DNA of 8,059 bases from a virus (taxonomy: Duplodnaviria > Heunggongvirae > Uroviricota > Caudoviricetes). The first letter of the stretch is position 1. Every line of letters begins with the position of its first letter. Location: IMG/VR virus record IMGVR_UViG_2778261541_000003. One strand, 5' to 3'. Below the pieces are notes generated by a model. That model ran no database searches, was not told the origin of the DNA, and saw only the letters and a program-made list of their open reading frames with translations. This document shows, piece by piece, positions 51 through 8,059 of this stretch. Position numbers and translations under genes: made by a program.

Positions 51-587
51 CTACCAATAATGTAATATTATTGACTTACGTTGTTTTCTTGCTTCGTAGA
101 ATAAACGCTCTTGCGGCGATAATTTGTGAAAACTGCCGGATGCACAATATATGTTTTTTAACTTTTCGCTGGTTGCTTTTATTGTATCTTCTGAGATGTA
201 TTTTAGGTATTTATCCGTATAGATGTTGCTACTATAAGAAATTAATGTTTTGCTGTTGTTGTGATGTGTTGTATTTTTATCGTTGAAGTCTGTATTTTTA
301 TTTACTGTCATTAGGTTTTTAATGATTACATGTAATGCAATAGTCTCCCCATCATCAATTCCATATTTGATGTCATAGTCAGTATATTTATTTGTTATAC
401 CGCTTCCTGATAGCGGCACTATGTACTCTGAGAAAAATGAGTTTGCCGCGTGACCATCAAGAGCAATAGCAGTTTTTTTGTGGTAAAAATAAAACAATAT
501 TGAGAGAGTCAAAATAATAGCGACGCCTAATGCAACCTTTAATATAGATATGGTTTTCAAAATATCGCTCCTTGTTGTAACATACAT
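51..587 (-). CDS. Hypothetical signal-anchored (single N-terminal TM helix) protein, Asn/Lys/Tyr-rich, AT-rich gene
   Basis: ORF track 51..608 (-). Hydrophobic stretch ILKVALGVAIILTLSILFYFY followed by HKK. The track start at 608 is TTG with no SD. In-frame ATG at 587..585 chosen here; an alternative TTG at 560 is preceded by a strong AAGGAG (rc of 568-573) at 7 nt spacing and would give N-terminus MKTISILKV. No family recognised. Confidence 0.55.
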   Translation of the reverse strand: MYVTTRSDILKTISILKVALGVAIILTLSILFYFYHKKTAIALDGHAANSFFSEYIVPLSGSGITNKYTDYDIKYGIDDGETIALHVIIKNLMTVNKNTDFNDKNTTHHNNSKTLISYSSNIYTDKYLKYISEDTIKATSEKLKNIYCASGSFHKLSPQERLFYEARKQRKSIILHYW

Positions 588-650
588 CAGTAATGTGGCG
601 TTTTTCAATTGTATTAAAGACGTGTAATATGTACACGCCTTTTGTTCTTC

Positions 651-1082
651 CTATTCAGGTATTTCAATTCCAAAACCATCTGCATCCCATGAGTTTTCAC
701 AGATGATGTAACCTAGTTCATTGAGCTTATTAAATGTTTTTTCAAAGATGATCTGGTAATCATTATCTGCAAGTGATTCCAGTTCAAGGTCATTAAGGTT
801 TATATAAAAACTTGTATGTCCAAGTGTTATTTTCTTATTGATTTCATTAAAAGTTCTTTTGAAAATAATATTTGATATTTCATGCCGTGCATTGTTTGCA
901 ATAATTTTTGCTTCATAAGCAGAAATTACGTCATCTTCATGAATATCTTTCAGAAAGCTGGTGTCAAGACGTTGTACTATTTCAGCGTTCATTGAGCGCT
1001 TATTGGCTTTTGCAGAAATTTCTATTTTTTCTTTTACTTCAACGGGAAGTCTGATCCTTAGTTGTGGATCTTCTCTGCTCAT
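651..1082 (-). CDS. mnt: Mnt-like ribbon-helix-helix (Arc/MetJ superfamily) repressor with an extra ~95-aa C-terminal domain of unknown function
   Basis: ORF track 651..1112 starts at TTG; in-frame ATG at 1082..1080 preceded by GGTGA. N-terminus MSREDPQLRIRLPVEVKEKIEISAKANKRSMNAEIVQRLD aligns closely with P22 Mnt as I recall it (MARDDPHFNFRMPMEVREKLKFRAEANGRSMNSELLQIV). Divergent from an arc-ant pair as in P22 immI. Confidence 0.8.
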   Translation of the reverse strand: MSREDPQLRIRLPVEVKEKIEISAKANKRSMNAEIVQRLDTSFLKDIHEDDVISAYEAKIIANNARHEISNIIFKRTFNEINKKITLGHTSFYINLNDLELESLADNDYQIIFEKTFNKLNELGYIICENSWDADGFGIEIPE

Positions 1083-1119
1083 GTTCTTCACCAAATATTG
1101 AGTTACTTGCAATGATTGA

Positions 1120-1188
1120 AGTATGCCTCACCGTGTGCTTGACATCAATGACGCACGGTGTGACAATTGTTTTGCCCCACGGTGGGGC
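1120..1188. promoter_or_regulatory. Divergent promoter/operator region between the mnt-like and arc-like genes
   Basis: Plus strand: -35 TTGACA 1139-1144, 17-bp spacer, -10 GACAAT 1162-1167. Minus strand: -35 TTGATG (rc of 1143-1148), 17-bp spacer, -10 CATACT (rc of 1120-1125). 15-bp perfect palindrome GCCCCACGGTGGGGC at 1174-1188 sits at the predicted rightward start site and shares the CCACGGTGG core with the P22 Mnt operator as I recall it. Inverted 7-mers CACCGTG (1129-1135) and CACGGTG (1154-1160) flank the overlapping -35 elements. Confidence 0.5.
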
Positions 1189-1202
1189 TAAGGAGATATG
1201 AA

Positions 1203-1370
1203 ATGCAAAAAGCAAAAGAGATGTGTCAACGACGAGTTCGTTTTCCGGACGATGTGAAGTTAGCTATTGAAAGAAATGGCGAAAAAGAATGCCGAAAGTT
1301 CAATACAGAGATTATCTATCAGCTGAGGAAAGTGTATGGACTCACTGGTGAGAAGAATAGCGTGGCATAA
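1203..1370 (+). CDS. arc: Arc-like ribbon-helix-helix transcriptional repressor (55 aa)
   Basis: ORF track 1167..1370 starts at TTG; in-frame ATG at 1203 has AAGGAG (1190-1195) 7 nt upstream. RRVRFPDDVKLAIERNGEKECRKFNTEIIYQLRK resembles the P22 Arc RHH fold (FNLRWPREV...ENGRSVNSEIYQRV). Size and position (immediately upstream of ant) match arc. Confidence 0.75.
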   Translation: MQKAKEMCQRRVRFPDDVKLAIERNGEKECRKFNTEIIYQLRKVYGLTGEKNSVA

Positions 1371-1442
1371 AACAGCGAAGCCCAACGGTGGCCAGACCGT
1401 CAGGGCTTCAGTATCGTAAAACTACGTATAGGAATTAACGAC
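1367..1442 (-). ncRNA. Candidate sar-like antisense RNA covering the ant ribosome-binding site
   Basis: Minus-strand sigma70-like promoter (-35 TTGATA, 17-bp spacer, -10 TATACT) predicts a start near 1441-1443. The transcript would be antisense to the ant SD (AGGAA 1430-1434) and end at a minus-strand hairpin GAAGCCC...GGGCTTC (1377-1409) followed by GCUGUUUUAU. Predicted length ~75 nt, comparable to P22 sar (~68 nt, from memory). Confidence 0.5.
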
Positions 1443-2387
1443 ATGACGAGTATAGCAACAGCGGTATCTACTATCAACGTGCCATTCCACGGCGCAGAAC
1501 TTTATGTTGTCAATCACAACGGAGAACCGTACACCCCAATGAAACCTATCGTTGAAGGCATGGGTATGGATTGGGCTTCACAGTTTACGAAAATGAAGCA
1601 GCGGTTTAAAACCTGCATTGTGAAAATCACAATGCAGCTTCCTGGGGATGAACAGCGCCGTGAGATTATTTGTTTGGCACTTCGCAAACTTGCTGGCTGG
1701 TTGCAAACCATCAGCCCTAACAAAGTCCGCCCTGAAATCCGCGACAAGGTAATCCAGTATCAGGAAGAGTGTGACGATGTTCTCTACGAGTACTGGACTA
1801 AAGGCCATGTGGTTAACCCACGCAAAGCTAAAAAGGCGTTGCCGGGTAAAATAACCACTGAACAGCAGGAAGCCATTAAACAACTCGTCATGAGTCGCGG
1901 TCAGTCTCTGCCAAAAGAAAAACAGGCTAAGGCGATGATCACCATGTGGTCGTCACTGAAATCTCATTTTGGCTGTTCGTACAAAGAAATTGATGAAGAT
2001 CAATTCGCCGAAGCGTTGTCTCTTGTTGCTCGGGTTCCGCTTGAAGGGGAGCATCTCCCTGCTGGATCTGCATCAGAGAATGATGAAGTGGCAGTCAAGA
2101 TGTTAGATGCGCTTCGTGAGGCAATTAAAACACAGACAAAATGTTATGGTTATCCGCTGAAGCCCGGCTACCGCAGTCTGATTCATTCGCCGTCTGGTGT
2201 TCTCGGCCTGACGGAGAACTCACTGCTGATGAATCTGCTTAACCAGTTACAGGACGACGGGCACGATGTATCGGGCGCGGCGGCGGAGCTGACCACCATG
2301 TTCTGCTACATCGTCGGTGTGAGCAAATGCCTGCGTGATATCCAGACCCACGCGGAGTACATCAACGACAAGGCTGGGTTCTTCTGA
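1443..2387 (+). CDS. ant: Phage antirepressor (Ant; P22-antirepressor-like N-terminal domain plus conserved C-terminal domain)
   Basis: 314-aa ORF; AGGAA 8 nt upstream of ATG. Follows arc as in immI. N-terminal region (...LAGWLQTISPNKVRPEIRDKVIQYQEECDDVLYEYWTKG) resembles the P22 antirepressor N-domain family as I recall it. C-terminal ~80 aa are shared with two other genes in the window. Confidence 0.88.
   Translation: MTSIATAVSTINVPFHGAELYVVNHNGEPYTPMKPIVEGMGMDWASQFTKMKQRFKTCIVKITMQLPGDEQRREIICLALRKLAGWLQTISPNKVRPEIRDKVIQYQEECDDVLYEYWTKGHVVNPRKAKKALPGKITTEQQEAIKQLVMSRGQSLPKEKQAKAMITMWSSLKSHFGCSYKEIDEDQFAEALSLVARVPLEGEHLPAGSASENDEVAVKMLDALREAIKTQTKCYGYPLKPGYRSLIHSPSGVLGLTENSLLMNLLNQLQDDGHDVSGAAAELTTMFCYIVGVSKCLRDIQTHAEYINDKAGFF
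1449..1477 (-). promoter_or_regulatory. Candidate sigma70 promoter for the sar-like antisense RNA
   Basis: -35 TTGATA = rc of 1472-1477; 17-bp spacer; -10 TATACT = rc of 1449-1454. Lies inside the first codons of ant. Confidence 0.5.
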
Positions 2388-2422: not shown

Positions 2423-2533
2423 CTGTACAGATTGCAGACTGTGGGTGAATAGCGTACTATTACCTCAAGGGTAAGAAAGCATTTTTAATCTTCCCTTCAA
2501 AACGCGTCCTGTAGCCAAACATGGGAGGACGAA

Positions 2534-3166
2534 ATGAGAACAAATACAACAAGAAAAGCGATGCCATACATTATCCCAGAAGCAGATTTCGATAGAAAAC
2601 TGAACATGTCTGAGAAGAACACTAGTCACACCGAAAGCTACTTAGCGAAAGGTGTGGTTGATTTCGTTCTTCCGGGATTCACAACACCTTATGGTTATCG
2701 CCTTGTAAAATCTTGTAATGGCGATCATTACAGAATGATTACTACCAGCGATACTCCAGAAACGGTGTATGCGGTTAAGTTAATCTTTCGGGAAGATATC
2801 GTCGAAGCCAAAAGAACATGTACGCAGATCATGGTATGGCGTACGCCTAATGTTATTCATGACCGTGCTGTTCATGGTTTGCCTCAGATTTTTTTTCAGT
2901 TCTTCCTAGAGCAATATGCGATCGTTGTATCTGATGAGCAACAAACAATCGATGGGAGGAGATTCTGGGAAAGAATGATTTCTTGGGCTATAAACACCCC
3001 GGGATATAATGTATACGTTTCAGATGGCTCTGAAGAAGATAGACCTCTTAGCTTCATGACATCATGGGATGATTTCTATAGCCAGTGGGCTGATTTCTGT
3101 TGGGGCAGTGATAAAGATGTGCATACCCACAGACTACTGGTTATAAGCAAAGATAAACTGCATTAA
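2534..3166 (+). CDS. Hypothetical protein (210 aa), cassette gene, no recognisable family
   Basis: ATG at 2534 with GGGAGGA SD 5 nt upstream; stop TAA 3164-3166; visibly lower GC than the flanking ant genes. Convergent with the 3187-3630 gene, sharing a bidirectional terminator. Confidence 0.7.
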   Translation: MRTNTTRKAMPYIIPEADFDRKLNMSEKNTSHTESYLAKGVVDFVLPGFTTPYGYRLVKSCNGDHYRMITTSDTPETVYAVKLIFREDIVEAKRTCTQIMVWRTPNVIHDRAVHGLPQIFFQFFLEQYAIVVSDEQQTIDGRRFWERMISWAINTPGYNVYVSDGSEEDRPLSFMTSWDDFYSQWADFCWGSDKDVHTHRLLVISKDKLH

Positions 3167-3169
3167 TAG

Positions 3170-3188
3170 AAGCCCGCGGCGCGGGCTT
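3170..3188. terminator. Bidirectional hairpin terminator between convergent cassette genes
   Basis: AAGCCCGC-ggc-GCGGGCTT perfect 8-bp GC-rich stem at 3170-3188, followed by TTCTTCTTCTTC on the plus strand; overlaps the stop codon of the minus-strand gene. Confidence 0.55.
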
Positions 3189-3630
3189 ATTCTTCTTCTT
3201 CATCATTAAAAAGCGGATTGTTGTTTCCATCTGATGAAAGGAAAGGTATGTGTTCTCTTGAAAATCCAACAATGACAATTTCATTATCATTTTTTGCATA
3301 ATGAATGCATTCATTAGAATGCATTCCGCCAGGGTTGAAATTTAAGTTAATGGTATAATTCTTAAATGTGTTTGGATACCATGTTGGCCCACAATGATAA
3401 TGCCAATAATTCTCTTGCTCATAATTGTCTGAGCCGGGAATTTTATCATGGTTATCATCAACCCACGAGGGCTTGTTTTTTCCAACAAGCGCCCTTCCAT
3501 TGGCAACATCCTCTAAAAACCTTTGTATGATTTTTATTTCATCATCAGTAAGGAAAGGTCCGTCTACAGCGAAAGGGGTGTTGCTTTCCCCATGTAGAAA
3601 ACTATTAGATATTCTAATGTTAAACTTCAA
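3187..3630 (-). CDS. Hypothetical protein (147 aa) with acidic C-terminal tail, no recognisable family; possible toxin or effector partner of the upstream small ORF
   Basis: ORF track 3187..3630. Start is TTG (rc of 3628-3630) with AGGAG SD 6 nt upstream; no in-frame ATG until residue ~103. Ends ...NDEEEE. Contains YWHYHCGPTWYP. Confidence 0.65.
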   Translation of the reverse strand: MKFNIRISNSFLHGESNTPFAVDGPFLTDDEIKIIQRFLEDVANGRALVGKNKPSWVDDNHDKIPGSDNYEQENYWHYHCGPTWYPNTFKNYTINLNFNPGGMHSNECIHYAKNDNEIVIVGFSREHIPFLSSDGNNNPLFNDEEEE

Positions 3631-3650: not shown

Positions 3651-3818
3651 CTATTTGGAGCGAAATGCCGCCTTGAAGTCGCTAAAAGATGTTCCTGTCT
3701 GGTAAACCATATCCTTGTCGCGCTCTTTGCTTGCGCGACCAAGCATAACTTTTCCAATGACATCCCAGCATTGCTTGGCTTGTTCATTGTGCTGAGTACG
3801 ATTTTTCAACGCTGTCAT
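3651..3818 (-). CDS. Small hypothetical protein (55 aa), first gene of a two-gene minus-strand operon; not in the ORF track (below its length cut-off)
   Basis: Hand translation of minus strand from ATG at 3818..3816: MTALKNRTQHNEQAKQCWDVIGKVMLGRASKERDKDMVYQTGTSFSDFKAAFRSK, stop at 3651-3653. Strong AGGAGG SD (rc of 3825-3830) 6 nt upstream. Stop lies 20 nt before the SD/TTG of the next gene. Confidence 0.45.
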   Translation of the reverse strand: MTALKNRTQHNEQAKQCWDVIGKVMLGRASKERDKDMVYQTGTSFSDFKAAFRSK

Positions 3819-3874
3819 ATCGCGCCTCCTTTACCTTTAAGGTAATATTACGCGAATCTACATCACATCGCCAA
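3819..3874 (-). promoter_or_regulatory. Candidate sigma70 promoter with palindromic operator for the 3651-3818 / 3187-3630 operon
   Basis: Minus strand: -35 TTGGCG (rc of 3869-3874), 18-bp spacer, -10 TAATAT (rc of 3845-3850), immediately followed by perfect 15-bp palindrome TTACCTTTAAGGTAA (3831-3845) over the predicted start site, then AGGAGG. Confidence 0.5.
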
Positions 3875-3879
3875 TGATT

Positions 3880-3903
3880 ATTTTAAAGGCACATCCCTGT
3901 GCC
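3880..3903 (-). terminator. Intrinsic terminator downstream of the second antirepressor (inside the repeat)
   Basis: Hairpin at 3888-3903 (GGCACA-loop-TGTGCC) followed on the minus strand by TTTAAAATAAT. Confidence 0.5.
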
Positions 3904-4141
3904 GCCGCCCGTCAGAAGAATCCTGCTTTGTCGCTGATGTACTCCGCGTGCGTCTGGATATCACGCAGGCATTTGCTCACACCGACGATGTAGCAGAACA
4001 TGGTGGTCAGCTCCGCCGCCGCGCCCGATACATCGTGCCCGTCGTCCTGTAACTGGTTAAGCAGATTCATCAGCAGTGAGTTCTCCGTCAGGCCGAGAAC
4101 ACCAGACGGCGAGTGAATCAGGCTGCGGTAGCCGGGCTTCA
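3882..4141. repeat. Inverted repeat copy B (partner of 2157-2418)
   Basis: Reverse complement matches copy A; covers the last ~77 codons of the second antirepressor plus its terminator hairpin. Confidence 0.9.
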
Positions 4142-4568
4142 GTGGGGCGCTGTATTCTTTTTTGTCTTCCAGCTTGATCGCCTCCATAATGGCGGGCATG
4201 AAGCCTGACAAGACCTTCTCCACTTTTGTTTCTTGTTGTCTTAAACGTTTCTCGCATTCAATGAAGTAGCGTCGCACCTGGCGACCTTTTTCGTTACGCT
4301 CGACCATCGCCAGCTCTTTGGCTGTATCAAGGGTGAGGTGGTACTCTTTGCGGTTGTGGCCGCCTCTACCAGATGTTTGCTTTCCCAAATTGGAAAGCAA
4401 AATATAGTCTTGATTTTCAATGAATTCGTATTCTGATATGCGATTTGTAATCCATGCTGCAAACACCTTTTTAACACCTAAAAAAGCGTGCAGATCGCGG
4501 GCATTACAAAGTAGGGCTGTTTCGTTAGATATAGTGCCGTTGAATACGGGGATGAGTTGAGCGTTCAT
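3912..4568 (-). CDS. Phage antirepressor, second copy: different N-terminal domain (Bro-N/ORF6N/Rha-like, tentative) fused to the same C-terminal domain as Ant
   Basis: 218-aa ORF; ATG at 4568..4566 with GGAGA SD (rc of 4576-4580). N-terminal part (...[33 protein letters not shown]...[32 protein letters not shown]) resembles phage antirepressor N-terminal families. C-terminal 77 aa are ~97% identical to Ant (1443-2387). Confidence 0.88.
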
Positions 4569-4596
4569 GATGGCGTCTCCACTTAGCGAATTACAT

Positions 4597-4804
4597 CACC
4601 ACCGCTGAGACCAATCAGATGGTGGTGAACTGAACGGAGTTGGTCTTACCGGCCTAAGTGGTACCGGCGTCCTTTCGGACCCCCATTCAGCCCACCATAA
4701 TTCTGGCATGACTGTGCTATACGCATAAAAAAACCACGTCTGGCGTGGTATGCGCCACTTAGTAATCCGGGAGACCAATCCCGGCACTGGATTTTGCCAG
4801 TGCC
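4597..4804 (-). other. Hairpin-rich untranslated leader upstream of the second antirepressor
   Basis: H1 at 4597-4627: CACCACC-g-CTGA-[gaccaa]-TCAG-at-GGTGGTG. H4 at 4767-4784: CCGGGA-[gaccaa]-TCCCGG, same hexaloop. H5 at 4783-4804: GGCACTGG-attttg-CCAGTGCC. No convincing ORF in this ~400 bp (track ORF 4596..4928 rejected). Confidence 0.45.
4726..4749 (-). terminator. Candidate intrinsic terminator or attenuator within the leader (minus strand)
   Basis: Minus-strand RNA ACCACG-CCAGA-CGUGGU followed by UUUUUUU (plus-strand A-run 4727-4733). Sits ~160 nt upstream of the second antirepressor start codon. Confidence 0.45.
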
Positions 4805-4839
4805 CGATTACTATGGCACAAGAGGAGTGCAATGTAAAT

Positions 4840-4948
4840 TTACCGCAAAGGTAATGATAAACGCGAAGAAATATTAAAATCAACCGTATTTGGTTGATTG
4901 CGTTTAACGCTTGATCACCTGAAAGCAAGATATTACCTTTAAGGTAAT
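4840..4948. promoter_or_regulatory. Two palindromic TTACC-N5-GGTAA operator-like sites
   Basis: Site 1 TTACC-gcaaa-GGTAA at 4840-4854. Site 2 is a perfect 17-bp palindrome ATTACCTTTAAGGTAAT at 4932-4948. Centres are ~94 bp apart. Site 2 lies ~20 bp upstream of the start of ORF 4968-5696 and at the distal end of the minus-strand leader. Confidence 0.5.
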
Positions 4949-4967
4949 GTTATTGTGAGGAAAAGCA

Positions 4968-5696
4968 ATGGAAGTTTTCTGGATAGTTGTTGGTGTGGTT
5001 GCGGTGATTATTTACGTTATCAACCAGAACAAGACTAAGATCTCTGATCGTACGGTCGTTAATCATAACAAAACGATAAAGACCGAAGATGGGGAGATAA
5101 CGATTAATCGTACACAGGTGATAGAACACACCTCTACTCAGTTTCAAAAAACTGGAGGTAATGCGCCTAATATTTCCGCACCTCCTGCTTATGATAGTGC
5201 GGTAATCCAGACATATTATAAACAGCAGGAGTTAGCAAAAGAGAGGCAACTGATTCAGCCAAAGCCGTTTACAGCTGAGCTTCCACCTGGAGTGTCAACG
5301 CGTCCGGCATATCATGGAAGATTCCCTGGTGATGACATATCGTCTCAGTCATCTAAAAAAGCACCTCAGGCAGTATCAGAGCCAGCAAGAATACCTTCTG
5401 TATCGCCGCCAAAAGAAGAATCAGCTAACAGAGTTTCAAGTGGTAGCAAGCAGTGCTTGCGATGCAGAATAAACCTACCATATGAAAAATTCAGGAAATC
5501 GTCAAAAAATCCAGATGGATTGACTAAGTGGTGTGCAAGGTGTCTCGATGGCCCAAAGAATACACGCCATATGAAGTGGTGCCCAATTTGTAATGTCCGC
5601 AGAAAACGAACAAGCTTTTACCCTAATAATCAAAATGCGGATGGCTTAATGGCATGGTGCAAAACGTGCTGGGACGAGCACAAAGCGAAACGATAG
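4968..5696 (+). CDS. Membrane-anchored protein with Pro/Ser-rich linker and C-terminal tandem CxxC-N20-WCxxC (zinc-ribbon-like) motifs; function unknown
   Basis: 242-aa ORF; GAGG 7 nt upstream of ATG. N-terminal TM helix MEVFWIVVGVVAVIIYVI followed by NQNKTK (positive-inside rule suggests a cytoplasmic C-domain). Two Cys motifs: CLRCRINLPYEKFRKSSKNPDGLTKWCARC and CPICNVRRKRTSFYPNNQNADGLMAWCKTC. Terminator follows. Confidence 0.75.
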   Translation: MEVFWIVVGVVAVIIYVINQNKTKISDRTVVNHNKTIKTEDGEITINRTQVIEHTSTQFQKTGGNAPNISAPPAYDSAVIQTYYKQQELAKERQLIQPKPFTAELPPGVSTRPAYHGRFPGDDISSQSSKKAPQAVSEPARIPSVSPPKEESANRVSSGSKQCLRCRINLPYEKFRKSSKNPDGLTKWCARCLDGPKNTRHMKWCPICNVRRKRTSFYPNNQNADGLMAWCKTCWDEHKAKR

Positions 5697-5720
5697 GCCG
5701 CTCTTGCGGCCTTTAAATTT
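5696..5720 (+). terminator. Intrinsic terminator after the Cys-rich membrane protein gene
   Basis: GGCCGC-TCTT-GCGGCC (5696-5711) followed by TTTAAATTT; stem overlaps the stop codon TAG 5694-5696. Confidence 0.6.
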
Positions 5721-5976
5721 ACCGGGTTTGTTTTCGTAATTGTTCGGCACAATAGTCGAGATGTGTTTGCAGATCCCGCATAGACATCTGTGAGCTGGTG
5801 ACGTAGTTAATCAGTGCAGTCAGTTCGGCAAGTGGGCCATCGACATTAAATCCATCCTTATCGAGATCCCGGAGTAATTTCATCAAGTGCGATCCCTCCA
5901 CCAGTGACCTGACGCCTCCCGGCGTGTGAATCCTTTCGGTAAATCCGTCTTCCAGTGGATAGTGATACTGCTGCAT
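5719..5976 (-). CDS. Small stand-alone antirepressor C-terminal-domain protein (85 aa), candidate SOS-inducible mini-antirepressor
   Basis: ORF track 5719..5994 starts at TTG; in-frame ATG at 5976..5974 with GGAGA SD 7 nt upstream. PLEDGFTERIHTPGGVRSLVEGSHLMKLLRDLDKDGFNVDGPLAELTALINYVTSSQMSMRDLQTHLDY aligns over its length with the shared C-terminal domain of the two larger antirepressors ([69 protein letters not shown]). LexA box 20 bp upstream. Confidence 0.8.
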   Translation of the reverse strand: MQQYHYPLEDGFTERIHTPGGVRSLVEGSHLMKLLRDLDKDGFNVDGPLAELTALINYVTSSQMSMRDLQTHLDYCAEQLRKQTR

Positions 5977-5995
5977 CTTATCTTCTCCATGCAAT

Positions 5996-6015
5996 AACTG
6001 TATAAATATACAGTA
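5996..6015. promoter_or_regulatory. LexA (SOS) box
   Basis: AACTGTATAAATATACAGTA at 5996-6015 is CTGT-N8-ACAG with an AT-rich spacer, 18/20 match to the E. coli consensus TACTGTATATATATACAGTA. A TTGATA -35-like hexamer abuts it on the minus-strand upstream side. It lies 20 nt upstream of the 5976 start codon. Confidence 0.8.
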
Positions 6016-6051
6016 TCAAATAATTTGTTTGCTATCCAGCACGTTTTGCGA

Positions 6052-6118
6052 ATCACCTGAAAGGTAATATCTGTTCGTATTTATGGGTTATCTATCCATA
6101 TATGGTTTTTAAGGTAAT
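6052..6118 (+). promoter_or_regulatory. Repeated motifs upstream of the tail-fibre gene (ATCACCTGAAAG plus two AAGGTAAT half-sites)
   Basis: ATCACCTGAAAG-GTAATAT at 6052-6069 (TCACC-tgaaa-GGTAA, imperfect palindrome) and TTTTTAAGGTAATAG at 6106-6120. Same motif family as 3831-3845, 4840-4854 and 4932-4948. Confidence 0.4.
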
Positions 6119-6171
6119 AGAATAACCGGATATGCGGCGCAACGGGTGCTGCTACTATCTGGAGATTTAAC

Positions 6172-7941
6172 ATGACGGTCTCAACCGAAGTTGACCACAA
6201 CGAATACACAGGTAACGGTGTTACAACGGCATTCCCTTATACCTTCAGGATTTTCCAGAAATCTGATTTAGTAGTGCAGGTTGTTGACCTGAACGAGAAC
6301 ATCACAGAGCTGATTCTTGATACTGATTACATAGTCACTGGTGCGGGAGGGTATAACGGCGGCAATGTAATTCTGTCGAAGGCGTTGGCTAACGGTTATC
6401 AGATTTCTATATCAAGAGAGCTACCGGTTACGCAGGATACCGATCTGCGCAACCAGGGTAAGTTCTTCGCTGAGGTGCATGAAGACGCATTCGATAAACT
6501 GACGATGCTGATCCAGCAGGTTCGCAGTTGGTTTGCCTTGGCGCTGCGCAAGCCATCAACCATCGCTAACTGGTACGACGCGCTGGGGAATTACATTCGC
6601 AACCTGCGCGACCCACGAGACCCGCAGGATGCTGCCACTAAAAATTATGTAGACACGATTAGTAACAACAACTATCTGCACACGTTAAGGGTTCCAGAGT
6701 CATTTACGCGGCAACTCCCTCCTGCTGCAGAACGTGCAAATATGATCCATGCATATGATTATGCAGGTGAGTCCATTATGGTCTTGCCTGAGAGCGGTAG
6801 TGCAGCAGATGTTCTGTTATTGCTGGCGCAACCTGACGGGCTTAAGAGGATTGGCACAAAAGTTAATTACGGTATACCGGTTGGATCTACTTTAACCGAT
6901 GGCGTCACTTTTTCTTTTGATAAGGATAAAGGTTGGCTGAGAATTGGTGGTGCCGATCTCCTACCACTTGACGATGAAAAGAACTTCTGGAGAGGCTTGC
7001 CTACACCGAGAAATTCATGGTGTAACCCGGCTCTTATCGGTGATTACTCAGTATCTTTTAACAGAAACGGTGCGTCATTCGCGGTATACGCCACAACTTT
7101 CGGGCATGACTGCGTTACGTACGGCGCGGCATCTATTGCCGGTGGTGCTGGTTCTGCCACTGGGGACCCAGATCATATTACCTCACCAAATGCTGAGGGG
7201 TACTGCTCTTTTGCATTTGGGAAAAATGTCATTGCTCTTGGAGCAAAATCTGCCGCATTCTGTGAAGAAACGGAAGCGCTTTCAAGGGCGGCTTTTGCAA
7301 CAGGTTATTATACACAAGCCAGACCGGGATACACTACAGACCCCGGCGGGGTTGCAAGTGATGGCATTGGTGCGGCGGCCATTGGATATCGAACTCGCGC
7401 GGCAGGAGATGGCTCTTTTGCTGTAGGTAAGAATATTCAGGCTTATGGTGGTTCGATTGCGATCGGGTGCGGCACTGATGAAGATAACCCAGCAGTCAAT
7501 CCACATAAAGACTCAGTGATGCTGTTTGCAAAATCGCTTATTCCAGGTATATCCGTTGTACCTGGTGGCGGTGGGCCGGAGGAACCATCGCGTGTAGGGG
7601 GGCACACAAAATACCCTAAAGAAATAGTGGATGTAGTACTGGAGGGAGGGGGCCGCGCAGCCATCAGAATACCAGGGATAGGAACTGGTACGATCTTGCT
7701 GCAAGGGACAGATAACGACGGCAATGCACTTTCTATCGCGTCGCTTGAATGGACAAGCGGAAACGGAGGTAGTGCTGTTGGTTCGTTGAAAATAAACATG
7801 AACAACGACGCACCATGCATTGAATTTCTGGAAGATGGCAAGGTGGTTTTGAAGAACGTAAAAACGTTTGAGGAGATAAACGGCGCCCCCGCGGGCACCA
7901 TTTATAAGGATGCTTCAAACTTCCTTAAAATTGTTGTTTAA
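6172..7941 (+). CDS. Tail fibre / tail spike protein: T7 gp17-like N-terminal adaptor domain with Gly/Ala-rich repeat-containing C-terminal region
   Basis: 589-aa ORF; GGAGA 7 nt upstream of ATG. N-terminus (EYTGNGVTTAFPYTFRIFQKSDLVVQVVD...YIRNLRDPRDPQDAATKNYVD) resembles the conserved N-terminal domain of T7 gp17-type tail fibres. C-terminal half has repeats such as CSFAFGKNVIALGAKSAAF and GSFAVGKNIQAYGGSIAIG that resemble YadA-head/Hep_Hag-type beta-roll repeats. Confidence 0.88.
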   Translation: MTVSTEVDHNEYTGNGVTTAFPYTFRIFQKSDLVVQVVDLNENITELILDTDYIVTGAGGYNGGNVILSKALANGYQISISRELPVTQDTDLRNQGKFFAEVHEDAFDKLTMLIQQVRSWFALALRKPSTIANWYDALGNYIRNLRDPRDPQDAATKNYVDTISNNNYLHTLRVPESFTRQLPPAAERANMIHAYDYAGESIMVLPESGSAADVLLLLAQPDGLKRIGTKVNYGIPVGSTLTDGVTFSFDKDKGWLRIGGADLLPLDDEKNFWRGLPTPRNSWCNPALIGDYSVSFNRNGASFAVYATTFGHDCVTYGAASIAGGAGSATGDPDHITSPNAEGYCSFAFGKNVIALGAKSAAFCEETEALSRAAFATGYYTQARPGYTTDPGGVASDGIGAAAIGYRTRAAGDGSFAVGKNIQAYGGSIAIGCGTDEDNPAVNPHKDSVMLFAKSLIPGISVVPGGGGPEEPSRVGGHTKYPKEIVDVVLEGGGRAAIRIPGIGTGTILLQGTDNDGNALSIASLEWTSGNGGSAVGSLKINMNNDAPCIEFLEDGKVVLKNVKTFEEINGAPAGTIYKDASNFLKIVV

Positions 7942-8059
7942 GATAAGTCATCACCAAGGAAGGCGGTGAGTAGCGCCTCCGCTATTACTCTGTGACCAAA
8001 ATCAGGTGATGCTGCCAACTTACTGATTTAGTGTATGATGGTGTTTTTGAGGTGCTCCA

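Follow-up and report, generated by a model that had tools for sequence, protein, structure and literature searches.

The 8,059-nucleotide stretch of DNA analyzed here in full (the window; IMG/VR virus record IMGVR_UViG_2778261541_000003) is a segment of a phiV10/epsilon15-like (Uetakevirus-type) prophage. The gene of interest lies at positions 4968 to 5696 on the plus strand. It starts with an ATG that follows, by 6 nt, a Shine-Dalgarno sequence read from the letters (GAGGA, 4957 to 4961, plus strand), ends with the stop codon at 5694 to 5696, and encodes 242 amino acids. An AntA antirepressor gene (3912 to 4568, minus strand) and a tail-fiber gene (6172 to 7941, plus strand) flank it. An earlier reading made from the letters alone (the sequence-only reading) placed the gene correctly between these two but did not mention that a gp19-like gene (5719 to 5994, minus strand) and a c4/isrK antisense-RNA module (4618 to 4816, minus strand) also lie there. 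The product is very probably a membrane-tethered, cytoplasmic double zinc ribbon, encoded by an accessory gene that is linked to phage immunity.

The anatomy proposed in the sequence-only reading, a membrane anchor, a flexible linker, and a double Cys4 domain, was recovered in the AlphaFold2 (AF2) model and in the alignments. Residues 1 to 21 (positions 4968 to 5030) comprise the single N-terminal transmembrane (TM) helix, which AF2 modeled at residues 3 to 20 with a predicted local distance difference test (pLDDT) score of about 90. This helix is unusually conserved in the homologue alignment (E2, F4, W5, G9, Q20, and N21), which argues that it does more than anchor the protein. Residues 22 to 55 (5031 to 5132) form a conserved juxtamembrane segment in the alignments, T.KT.DGE..I.RT.V, predicted at low confidence to be a beta-hairpin (AF2 strands 27 to 39 and 42 to 54; pLDDT 44 to 50). 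A Pro/Ser/Gln-rich linker of ~130 residues had been proposed. Residues 56 to 158 (5133 to 5441) are indeed disordered (pLDDT mostly <50) and rich in serine (13.6%), proline (13.6%), alanine (10.7%), and glutamine (8.7%), but the conserved residues 22 to 55 are not low-complexity sequence. The linker varies in length and sequence, with the first ribbon beginning at residue 66 to 162 across the family, and the Escherichia coli version is the longest.

The C-terminal domain is compact (AF2 pLDDT >90 for residues 160 to 242) and consists of two beta4-alpha repeats. Zinc ribbon 1 spans residues 159 to 200 (C163, C166, W188, C189, and C192; positions 5442 to 5567), and zinc ribbon 2, which ends in a basic C-terminal helix, spans residues 201 to 242 (C205, C208, W230, C231, and C234; positions 5568 to 5693). 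There are two copies of the Cys4 motif with conserved residues, including DGL-x2-WC-x2-C, as first described, but the spacing in both is CxxC-N21-WCxxC and not N20. In 46 relatives, 0 or 1 Lys/Arg residues precede the TM helix and 1 to 6 occur in the 15 residues after it, and residue 2 is acidic in nearly all. By the positive-inside rule, this Lys/Arg distribution predicts an N-out/C-in topology, which would therefore place the zinc domain in the reducing cytoplasm. Cys4 zinc sites require a reducing compartment, and the ribbons are expected to bind zinc.

The protein had been said to match no standard phage structural or lysis protein; its ribbon domain does have recognizable relatives, among Stc1-type and HNH-accessory zinc repeats. 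Pfam Stc1 (PF12898) matched residues 161 to 193 only, at 21.0 bits (E value, 5e-4), which is below the 24.8-bit gathering threshold; three relatives scored above this cutoff (P0182, 26.6 bits; P0034, 33.9 bits; and P0072, 39.2 bits). The Stc1 feature of tandem zinc fingers with eight conserved cysteines is present in the eight cysteines listed above. Each ribbon partially matched the N-terminal parts of PHROG families whose names are endonuclease VII, HNH endonuclease, Lar-like, and primase, and partial matches to ribbon 2 fall in residues 197 to 242. In a PDB profile search, ribbon 1 aligned with the N-terminal Cys4 motif of PacI (PacI residues 2 to 41; E value, 0.067), and a PDB sequence search with the single domain returned RING noise only. 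The Foldseek matches among viral models (BFVD) were phage and giant-virus proteins of the HNH, beta-beta-alpha-Me, EndoVII, "Stc1 domain," and Zn-finger kinds, with E values down to 7e-7. The domain also shows a feature known from beta-beta-alpha-Me nucleases, a structural zinc held via two CxxC motifs in a beta-hairpin/helix repeat.

Catalytic residues are another matter. In neither repeat do the 46 homologues conserve a His or an Asp-His pair between the two CxxC motifs, and for this reason the domain is not considered a nuclease. Only one His, H201, comes close to conservation; it sits in the connector between the repeats and is missing from the wider family. In beta-beta-alpha-Me nucleases, the catalytic His, which acts as the general base, and the metal-ligand Asp/Asn are strictly conserved (PMC2699513). 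Hpy99I has two tandem beta4-alpha2 repeats, each with a structural zinc held via two CxxC motifs. Catalysis resides in the second repeat only (Asp148, His149, and Asn165), and the major groove of the DNA is read by the first, noncatalytic one (PMC2699513). In phage HNH nickases, both activity and sequence selectivity are tuned by accessory zinc ribbons (PMC3592412). The repeats studied here are noncatalytic relatives of beta-beta-alpha-Me (HNH/EndoVII) structural-zinc repeats and of Stc1-type ribbons. What they have in common with Hpy99I, PacI, T4 endonuclease VII, and Stc1 is the structural-zinc beta4-alpha repeat and, with Hpy99I, the tandem design; unlike Hpy99I, PacI, and endonuclease VII, the domain is tethered to the membrane and is without conserved catalytic residues. 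Soluble relatives, which are without signal peptides, carry arrays of 3 to 12 ribbons fused to HNH, Bro-N plus T5orf172, Vsr-like nuclease, superfamily 1 and 2 (SF1/SF2) helicase, or HEAT-repeat regions. The ribbon domain is uniformly and strongly basic across the family (net charge, +7 to +19; isoelectric point, 9.1 to 10.3), and it appears to be a nucleic-acid-binding module.

The only full-length match of the protein was to PHROG 6762, a family of unknown function (E value, 1.1e-150; residues 1 to 242 against profile positions 1 to 242 of 242), and PADLOC and NCBIfam scans of the protein gave no match. This outcome agrees with the earlier statement that no characterized phage structural or lysis family is matched. 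The family is uncharacterized, designated "unknown function" in PHROGs and "hypothetical protein" in RefSeq. Our literature searches found no paper on this protein, and the DefensePredictor text does not mention it. All 33 homologues in Enterobacterales, from Escherichia, Superficieibacter, Enterobacter, Citrobacter, Salmonella, Serratia, Providencia, Pectobacterium, and Buttiauxella, are named "hypothetical protein." An exhaustive search with the ribbon-domain profile returned 3,121 cluster representatives. Dozens of these matches have the identical layout of N-terminal helix, spacer, and two C-terminal ribbons, including proteins of Edwardsiella, Acinetobacter, Aeromonas, Yersinia, Pasteurellaceae, Marinobacterium, Oceanobacter, Pseudoalteromonas, and Neptunomonas. 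A second, word-indexed homology search with the domain profile found two proteins only, one of which has PF27269, a faint and uninformative YonG_N match.

The Cys motifs are conserved in homologues. In the 46-protein alignment, which extends down to 20 to 25% identity, the eight cysteines are invariant, as are W188, W230, K161, and D225. All 54 E. coli alleles are intact, and the overall ratio of nonsynonymous to synonymous substitution rates (dN/dS) is 0.26. Among 37 distinct E. coli alleles, dN/dS is 0.06 for the ribbons, 0.30 for residues 1 to 55, and 0.71 for the linker. This is a real gene under modular selection. Smaller relatives also exist. A 118-amino-acid protein in a Neisseria metagenome-assembled genome (L101, 5791 to 6147) consists of a TM helix, a Pro-rich linker, and a single ribbon, and two proteins of 134 to 140 amino acids (P0182 and P0183) have an amphipathic N terminus, a QP-repeat linker, and two ribbons. 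These minimal relatives suggest that the tether-plus-ribbon design is modular and has been repeatedly rebuilt.

The accessory (moron) nature of the gene, suspected beforehand, is evident from comparison with related phages. In BLASTN alignments with phiV10, positions 4595 to 4844 and 5719 to 6653 of the window match, and a cassette at 4845 to 5718 (plus strand), comprising a control region, the open reading frame (ORF), and a terminator, stands in place of 41 bp of phiV10 (L002 4232 to 4272). Most related phages match the cassette flanks only. Among isolated phages of the phiV10/epsilon15 type, TL-2011b alone carries the gene, which is unannotated there. The gene is present in 129 of 5,426 complete E. 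coli genomes (~2.4%) and is always chromosomal, with the backbone flank found in 261 E. coli genomes at ≥80% coverage and in 534 with any match.

The gene's own terminator, also proposed earlier, is a GC-rich hairpin at 5695 to 5712 (7 bp, 6 of them GC; z = -2.3) that overlaps the stop codon and is followed by a weak T-tract, TTTAAATTT. It is probably bidirectional because it sits between the convergent genes at 4968 to 5696 and 5719 to 5994. A terminator-like hairpin on the minus strand at 4878 to 4899, inside the cassette, was recovered in the terminator scan and also as inverted repeat I3; it insulates the c4 operon from antisense read-through. A tentative sigma-70 promoter on the plus strand at 4911 to 4939 consists of a -35 hexamer TTGATC (4911 to 4916), a 17-nt spacer, and a -10 hexamer TACCTT (4934 to 4939) that falls within an operator described below. 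The consensus promoter scan did not report this site because the -10 hexamer matches at only 3 of 6 positions. The TTGAYC-N14-TATTACC...GGTAAT geometry, preceded by a terminator, is kept in Citrobacter, Enterobacter, and Salmonella homologues, in which the spacer sequences differ. With a promoter/operator and a terminator of its own, the gene forms an autonomous accessory unit of the prophage that is horizontally mobile.

A perfect 17-bp palindrome, ATTACCTTTAAGGTAAT (ATTACCTT-T-AAGGTAAT), lies at 4932 to 4948, 19 nt before the ATG. An operator-like palindrome upstream of the gene had been noticed in the sequence-only reading; it is real, but it is not private to this gene. Five near-copies occur in the window (2459 to 2475, 3830 to 3846, 4839 to 4855, 4932 to 4948, and 6052 to 6068), with 8 strand-matches against 0.04 expected. 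The TL-2011b genome carries 10 such sites and that of phiV10 carries 7; every one is intergenic and precedes a transcription unit. The units are the integrase gene, the early-left operon (with two sites, beside the gene for the repressor), the replication genes, the head operon, and the genes for the antirepressor and the tail fiber. Three sites of the TTACC-N5-GGTAA type lie in the repressor/cro divergent region of TL-2011b, and at the early-left promoter a site directly follows TTGACA...CATAAT. Judged from this distribution, the palindrome is a dispersed, phage-wide immunity operator of the CI/Cro type. The scattered C1 operators of P1 follow a comparable dispersed logic. The dispersed 17-bp consensus is ATTACCTTnAAGGTAAT, found before most transcription units of phiV10/TL-2011b-type phages (L088 and L089), and we found no description of a dispersed operator for this phage group. 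The possibility that the palindrome is a site for the Mnt/Arc-type regulators that the window encodes was rejected, as there is no copy in the mnt-arc intergenic region and there are copies at the TL-2011b repressor/cro region.

A second operator copy, at 4839 to 4855 and 93 bp start-to-start from the first, abuts the -35 of a divergent minus-strand promoter-like site (4838 to 4810) that drives the P1-like c4/isrK antisense RNA and AntA. The two operators make up a shared divergent control region through which the gene is wired into the immunity circuit. Because the operator overlaps the likely -10 in the E. coli lineage, repression in the lysogen is predicted, and the gene there may be expressed on infection or induction. 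Providencia-type homologues have a different 17-bp palindrome, TTAACCTACTGGGTTAA. Another perfect palindrome, TGTGACATGTCACA, which does not occur in the window, lies ~60 to 75 nt upstream of the homologue's ATG in Citrobacter, Enterobacter, and Salmonella loci (L062 to L068), between the upstream terminator and a -35-like hexamer.

Across phages, the family is tied to immunity regions (immC or immI) and not to one virion type. At all 28 divergent enterobacterial podophage loci, the gene is found in the accessory region that separates the last large ejection/internal-virion gene from the tailspike or tail-fiber gene, the place of the latter being taken by a terminase gene in one type. At least four backbones are represented: one that is Uetakevirus-like, a Providencia type (Tail_spike_N), a Serratia type that is temperate and T7-like, and one in which internal proteins contain SLT. 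The gene and the ejection genes usually converge, and its neighbors are antirepressors (Ant or AntA), the phrog_450 module, phrog_5954, or small two-TM proteins. Yersinia phages YeP4-6 and one Acinetobacter prophage have the same podophage placement.

At six further loci (L093, L094, L095, L100, L106, and L107), the gene is on the same strand as, and directly downstream of, a CI-type repressor gene (HTH_3 plus Peptidase_S24). The sources are Marinobacterium, Neptunomonas, two Acinetobacter, Aeromonas phage phiARM81mr (L106), and a metagenomic contig. In phiARM81mr the annotated order is a leftward Cro gene and then, rightward, CI and the homologue. The gap between repressor and homologue is 15 to 54 bp at four of the six loci, and a small ORF intervenes at the other two (L094 and L107). 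The gene and the repressor gene are abutting and convergent in Oceanobacter and Pseudoalteromonas, and in Haemophilus, Acinetobacter, and Edwardsiella the neighbors of the gene are of antirepressor type (Bro-N/P22_AR_C, KilA-N, or Rha). These locations are typical of exclusion genes, as had been surmised from the window: the podophage site is that of the P22 sieA/immI locus, and the site in other gammaproteobacterial phages is the lambda rexAB position.

We propose that the protein is a single-gene phage-conflict factor acting in superinfection exclusion or abortive infection, a reading to which we assign a probability of roughly 45%. The two N-terminal residues would lie in the periplasm, and the conserved TM helix would anchor the protein in the inner membrane. 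A disordered tether of ~100 residues would hold the basic ribbon domain at the cytoplasmic face of the membrane, where it could capture nucleic acid that enters or replicates at the inner membrane, or a partner associated with such nucleic acid. The TM/juxtamembrane module would then carry out the effect, either by blocking the DNA-entry conduit or by oligomerizing and disturbing the membrane, with expression coupled to the phage immunity switch. The sequence-only reading had offered lysogenic conversion, which found no support, or superinfection exclusion. The latter is in keeping with the typical position and with the lack of a contrary characterized family, but exclusion and nucleic acid binding are functions that we infer.

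A bolder version, which we advance only tentatively, is that the family represents an unrecognized single-protein exclusion/abortive infection class that is widespread in gammaproteobacterial prophages. A catalytically dead HNH-type double ribbon, tethered where the entry site opens into the cytoplasm, would sense DNA, its ends, or replication intermediates, and clustering on foreign DNA would drive the conserved TM/juxtamembrane module to plug the conduit or permeabilize the membrane. The gene would occupy a sieA-like or a rexAB-like slot according to the backbone.

Known systems provide analogues for parts of this proposal. P22 sieA resembles the gene studied here in being an accessory gene of a prophage that falls, next to the immI antirepressor module, in the region from the last ejection-protein gene to the tailspike gene. 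SieA has 162 to 164 amino acids, three predicted TM helices, and no zinc domain (PMC10883804). SieA proteins, of which there are three types, stop related phages from injecting their DNA, and escape from this block maps to the ejection proteins. In contrast, the protein studied here has 242 amino acids, one TM helix, and a large cytoplasmic part, and its relatives occur in lambdoid phages as well. The two were set apart by these described features and not by pairwise alignment, and no SieA family was among the PHROG matches. SieA is thus a positional and functional analogue only, not a homologue. Lactococcal AbiP and staphylococcal PdpSau, of the AbiC/P abortive infection group, are also single-gene systems, with a single N-terminal membrane anchor and a positively charged cytoplasmic nucleic-acid-binding domain (PMC13064643, PMC10127798). 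PdpSau, an accessory gene product of staphylococcal prophages with a membrane helix and a positively charged cytoplasmic C terminus, causes abortive infection with membrane depolarization (PMC10127798). These proteins come from Gram-positive hosts, are without a long disordered tether, and have an unrelated fold (described as OB-like for PdpSau, versus tandem Cys4 ribbons here), and PADLOC gave no sequence match; we regard them as analogues in design rather than homologues. The resemblance to lambda RexAB lies in the six relatives directly downstream of the CI-type (HTH plus S24) repressor gene, a same-strand position compatible with cotranscription. However, the family consists of a single gene and not of a sensor plus a polytopic channel, there is no homology, and the gene in the window is in an immI-type antirepressor region under an immunity operator, not beside cI.

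Several points weigh against a conflict function. No member of the family has been characterized, and the defense-oriented scan noted above (PADLOC) and NCBIfam yielded nothing. A perfect immunity operator lies over the probable -10 in the E. coli/Citrobacter lineage, and because its position predicts repression in the lysogen, the gene is a poor fit to classical prophage-expressed exclusion. Early-lytic exclusion genes do exist, such as T4 imm. The putative sigma-70 promoter itself would be a weak one. The main tension is a regulatory one, with the operator in the window suggesting expression on derepression and the cI-downstream position elsewhere suggesting expression in lysogens. The very strong conservation of the ribbon surface within Enterobacterales suggests a specific partner over nonspecific DNA binding, and Stc1-type ribbons can be protein-interaction modules, as in Schizosaccharomyces pombe Stc1. 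A target specific to the ejection proteins of podophages could not be general, because the family is found in both podophage and lambdoid backbones.

Another explanation is an early protein that anchors the phage's own DNA, or its replication or packaging intermediates, to the inner membrane as a dispensable aid to efficiency. The immunity operator over the promoter suggests expression on derepression, during early lytic growth, and the ribbon domain is basic and of a DNA-associated class. phi29 p16.7 has the same design: anchored at its N terminus as an integral membrane protein, it binds DNA through its cytoplasmic part and brings replication intermediates to the membrane (PMC4974454). However, p16.7 is unrelated in sequence and in DNA-binding fold, and it is a core early gene product of a lytic phage rather than a mobile immunity-region accessory. 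We consider such a helper role unlikely: presence or absence among near-identical phages, and transfer between at least four unrelated podophage backbones and lambdoid phages, are more typical of conflict genes than of replication accessories; the gene is never beside replication genes at enterobacterial loci; and the six loci downstream of CI predict expression in lysogens, when phage DNA is not replicating. It is also improbable, in our estimation, that the protein works as a tether, holding one particular protein at the membrane and so shifting the choice between lysis and lysogeny or the physiology of the host. Candidates for the protein held are the repressor, an antirepressor, a component of the divisome, and a host factor, for instance a membrane protease. 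The systematic adjacency to repressor and antirepressor genes fits this idea, as do the divergent control region and operators in common with the c4-antirepressor operon, the extremely conserved ribbon surface and TM helix, a pattern that points to specific protein partners, and the protein binding of S. pombe Stc1-type ribbons. So does the layout of TM helix, P/Q/S-rich linker, and C-terminal binding domain, which recalls E. coli ZipA, with its N-out/C-in anchor at the extreme N terminus, long P/Q-rich linker, and FtsZ-binding alpha/beta C-terminal domain; the likeness to ZipA is in layout only, without homology, and the C-terminal domain differs. Yet no partner gene is consistently coinherited, the closest structural relatives and fusion partners are enzymes acting on DNA, and the libraries scanned revealed no similarity to known antirepressors or to CIII/Kil/Icd-type proteins.

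Two further explanations concern the ribbon domain itself. If the N-terminal helix were a signal-anchor, the C-terminal domain would be periplasmic, with its cysteines in disulfides, and would act on incoming virions or ejection proteins. Many superinfection-exclusion proteins do act in the periplasm, and the helix at the extreme N terminus is signal-sequence-like. We nonetheless rejected this orientation on the charge distribution and rate it as very unlikely, given that there is no positive n-region and that the Lys/Arg counts and the acidic residue 2 described above run the other way; the homology of the ribbons to cytoplasmic zinc modules of nucleases and helicases, and the soluble relatives without signal peptides, also speak against it. 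An active membrane-bound HNH/EndoVII-type nuclease that cuts incoming DNA is scarcely conceivable. The conservation pattern across the 46 homologues contradicts it; what aligns in the PHROG, PacI, and Pfam matches is accessory N-terminal ribbons rather than catalytic cores; and Hpy99I has only one catalytic repeat of its two, which needs D148, H149, and N165 (PMC2699513). A holin or lysis function was also rejected, as a lysis cassette is adjacent in one lineage only (L081 to L086), and so was an obligatory partner gene, as the neighbors differ between lineages.

The remainder of the window holds further regulatory genes. The C4/isrK RNAs (minus strand) are upstream of the AntA-type antirepressor gene, in a P1-type immI module recognized with Rfam: C4 antisense RNA at 4618 to 4702 (61 bits), isrK at 4727 to 4803 (68 bits), and the c4 a1/b1 target at 4764 to 4816. 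The ORF at 4596 to 4928 (minus strand) that overlies these RNAs is probably spurious. A complete P22-type immI module is present at 651 to 2387, with genes for an Mnt-like Arc-domain protein (651 to 1112, minus strand) and an Arc-like protein (1167 to 1370, plus strand), the sar antisense RNA (1374 to 1441, minus strand; 45 bits), and a P22_AR_N antirepressor gene (1443 to 2387, plus strand). With P1-type and P22-type immI modules both in the window, the prophage has two different antirepressor systems. A 264-nt inverted repeat, 97% complementary (2154 to 2417 and 3882 to 4145), corresponds to the near-identical C-terminal module of ~80 amino acids (phrog_450) of both antirepressor genes. It flanks 1,464 bp with two genes of unknown function, phrog_1349 (2534 to 3166) and phrog_5954 (3187 to 3630), and is a likely substrate for inversion or recombinational shuffling. 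The gp19-like gene at 5719 to 5994 is a third, diverged and stand-alone copy of the phrog_450 module (43% identity).

Two additional ORFs and the window ends deserve mention. The 55-amino-acid ORF at 3651 to 3818 (minus strand) has a strong GGAGG Shine-Dalgarno sequence and lies immediately downstream of the operator copy at 3830 to 3846, with a TAATAT hexamer that resembles a -10. This ORF may head the phrog_5954 transcription unit as a small gene under operator control. The ORF at 51 to 608 (minus strand; 185 amino acids; phrog_8033, unknown function) has a hydrophobic N-terminal segment and a weak TIR-like/ThsB PADLOC match (E value, 0.015), and in TL-2011b the phrog_8033 gene comes directly after the last ejection-protein gene. 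It is a further candidate accessory or defense gene. The window ends, 2 to 55 and 8005 to 8059, match both ends of insertion sequence IS1 (reference, the IS1B copy of E. coli TW10722, L008). There are two readings of the window: a contig that broke off at IS1 repeats, or a piece of prophage with IS1 on both sides.

If the proposed exclusion or defense function is correct, the gene would constitute a new compact single-gene prophage system, present in ~2.4% of complete E. coli genomes and in many gammaproteobacteria. Its sensor would be a catalytically dead HNH-type zinc ribbon, a fold with no known earlier link to defense, and this would be the first function for the widespread Stc1-like bacterial and viral ribbon repeat (>3,000 cluster representatives). 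Such a system could help explain phage host-range failures in phiV10/epsilon15-like lysogens, including Shiga-toxin-associated and enterotoxigenic E. coli lineages. Whatever the role of the protein, its strict association with immunity regions provides a handle on how accessory functions are coupled to the temperate-phage switch.

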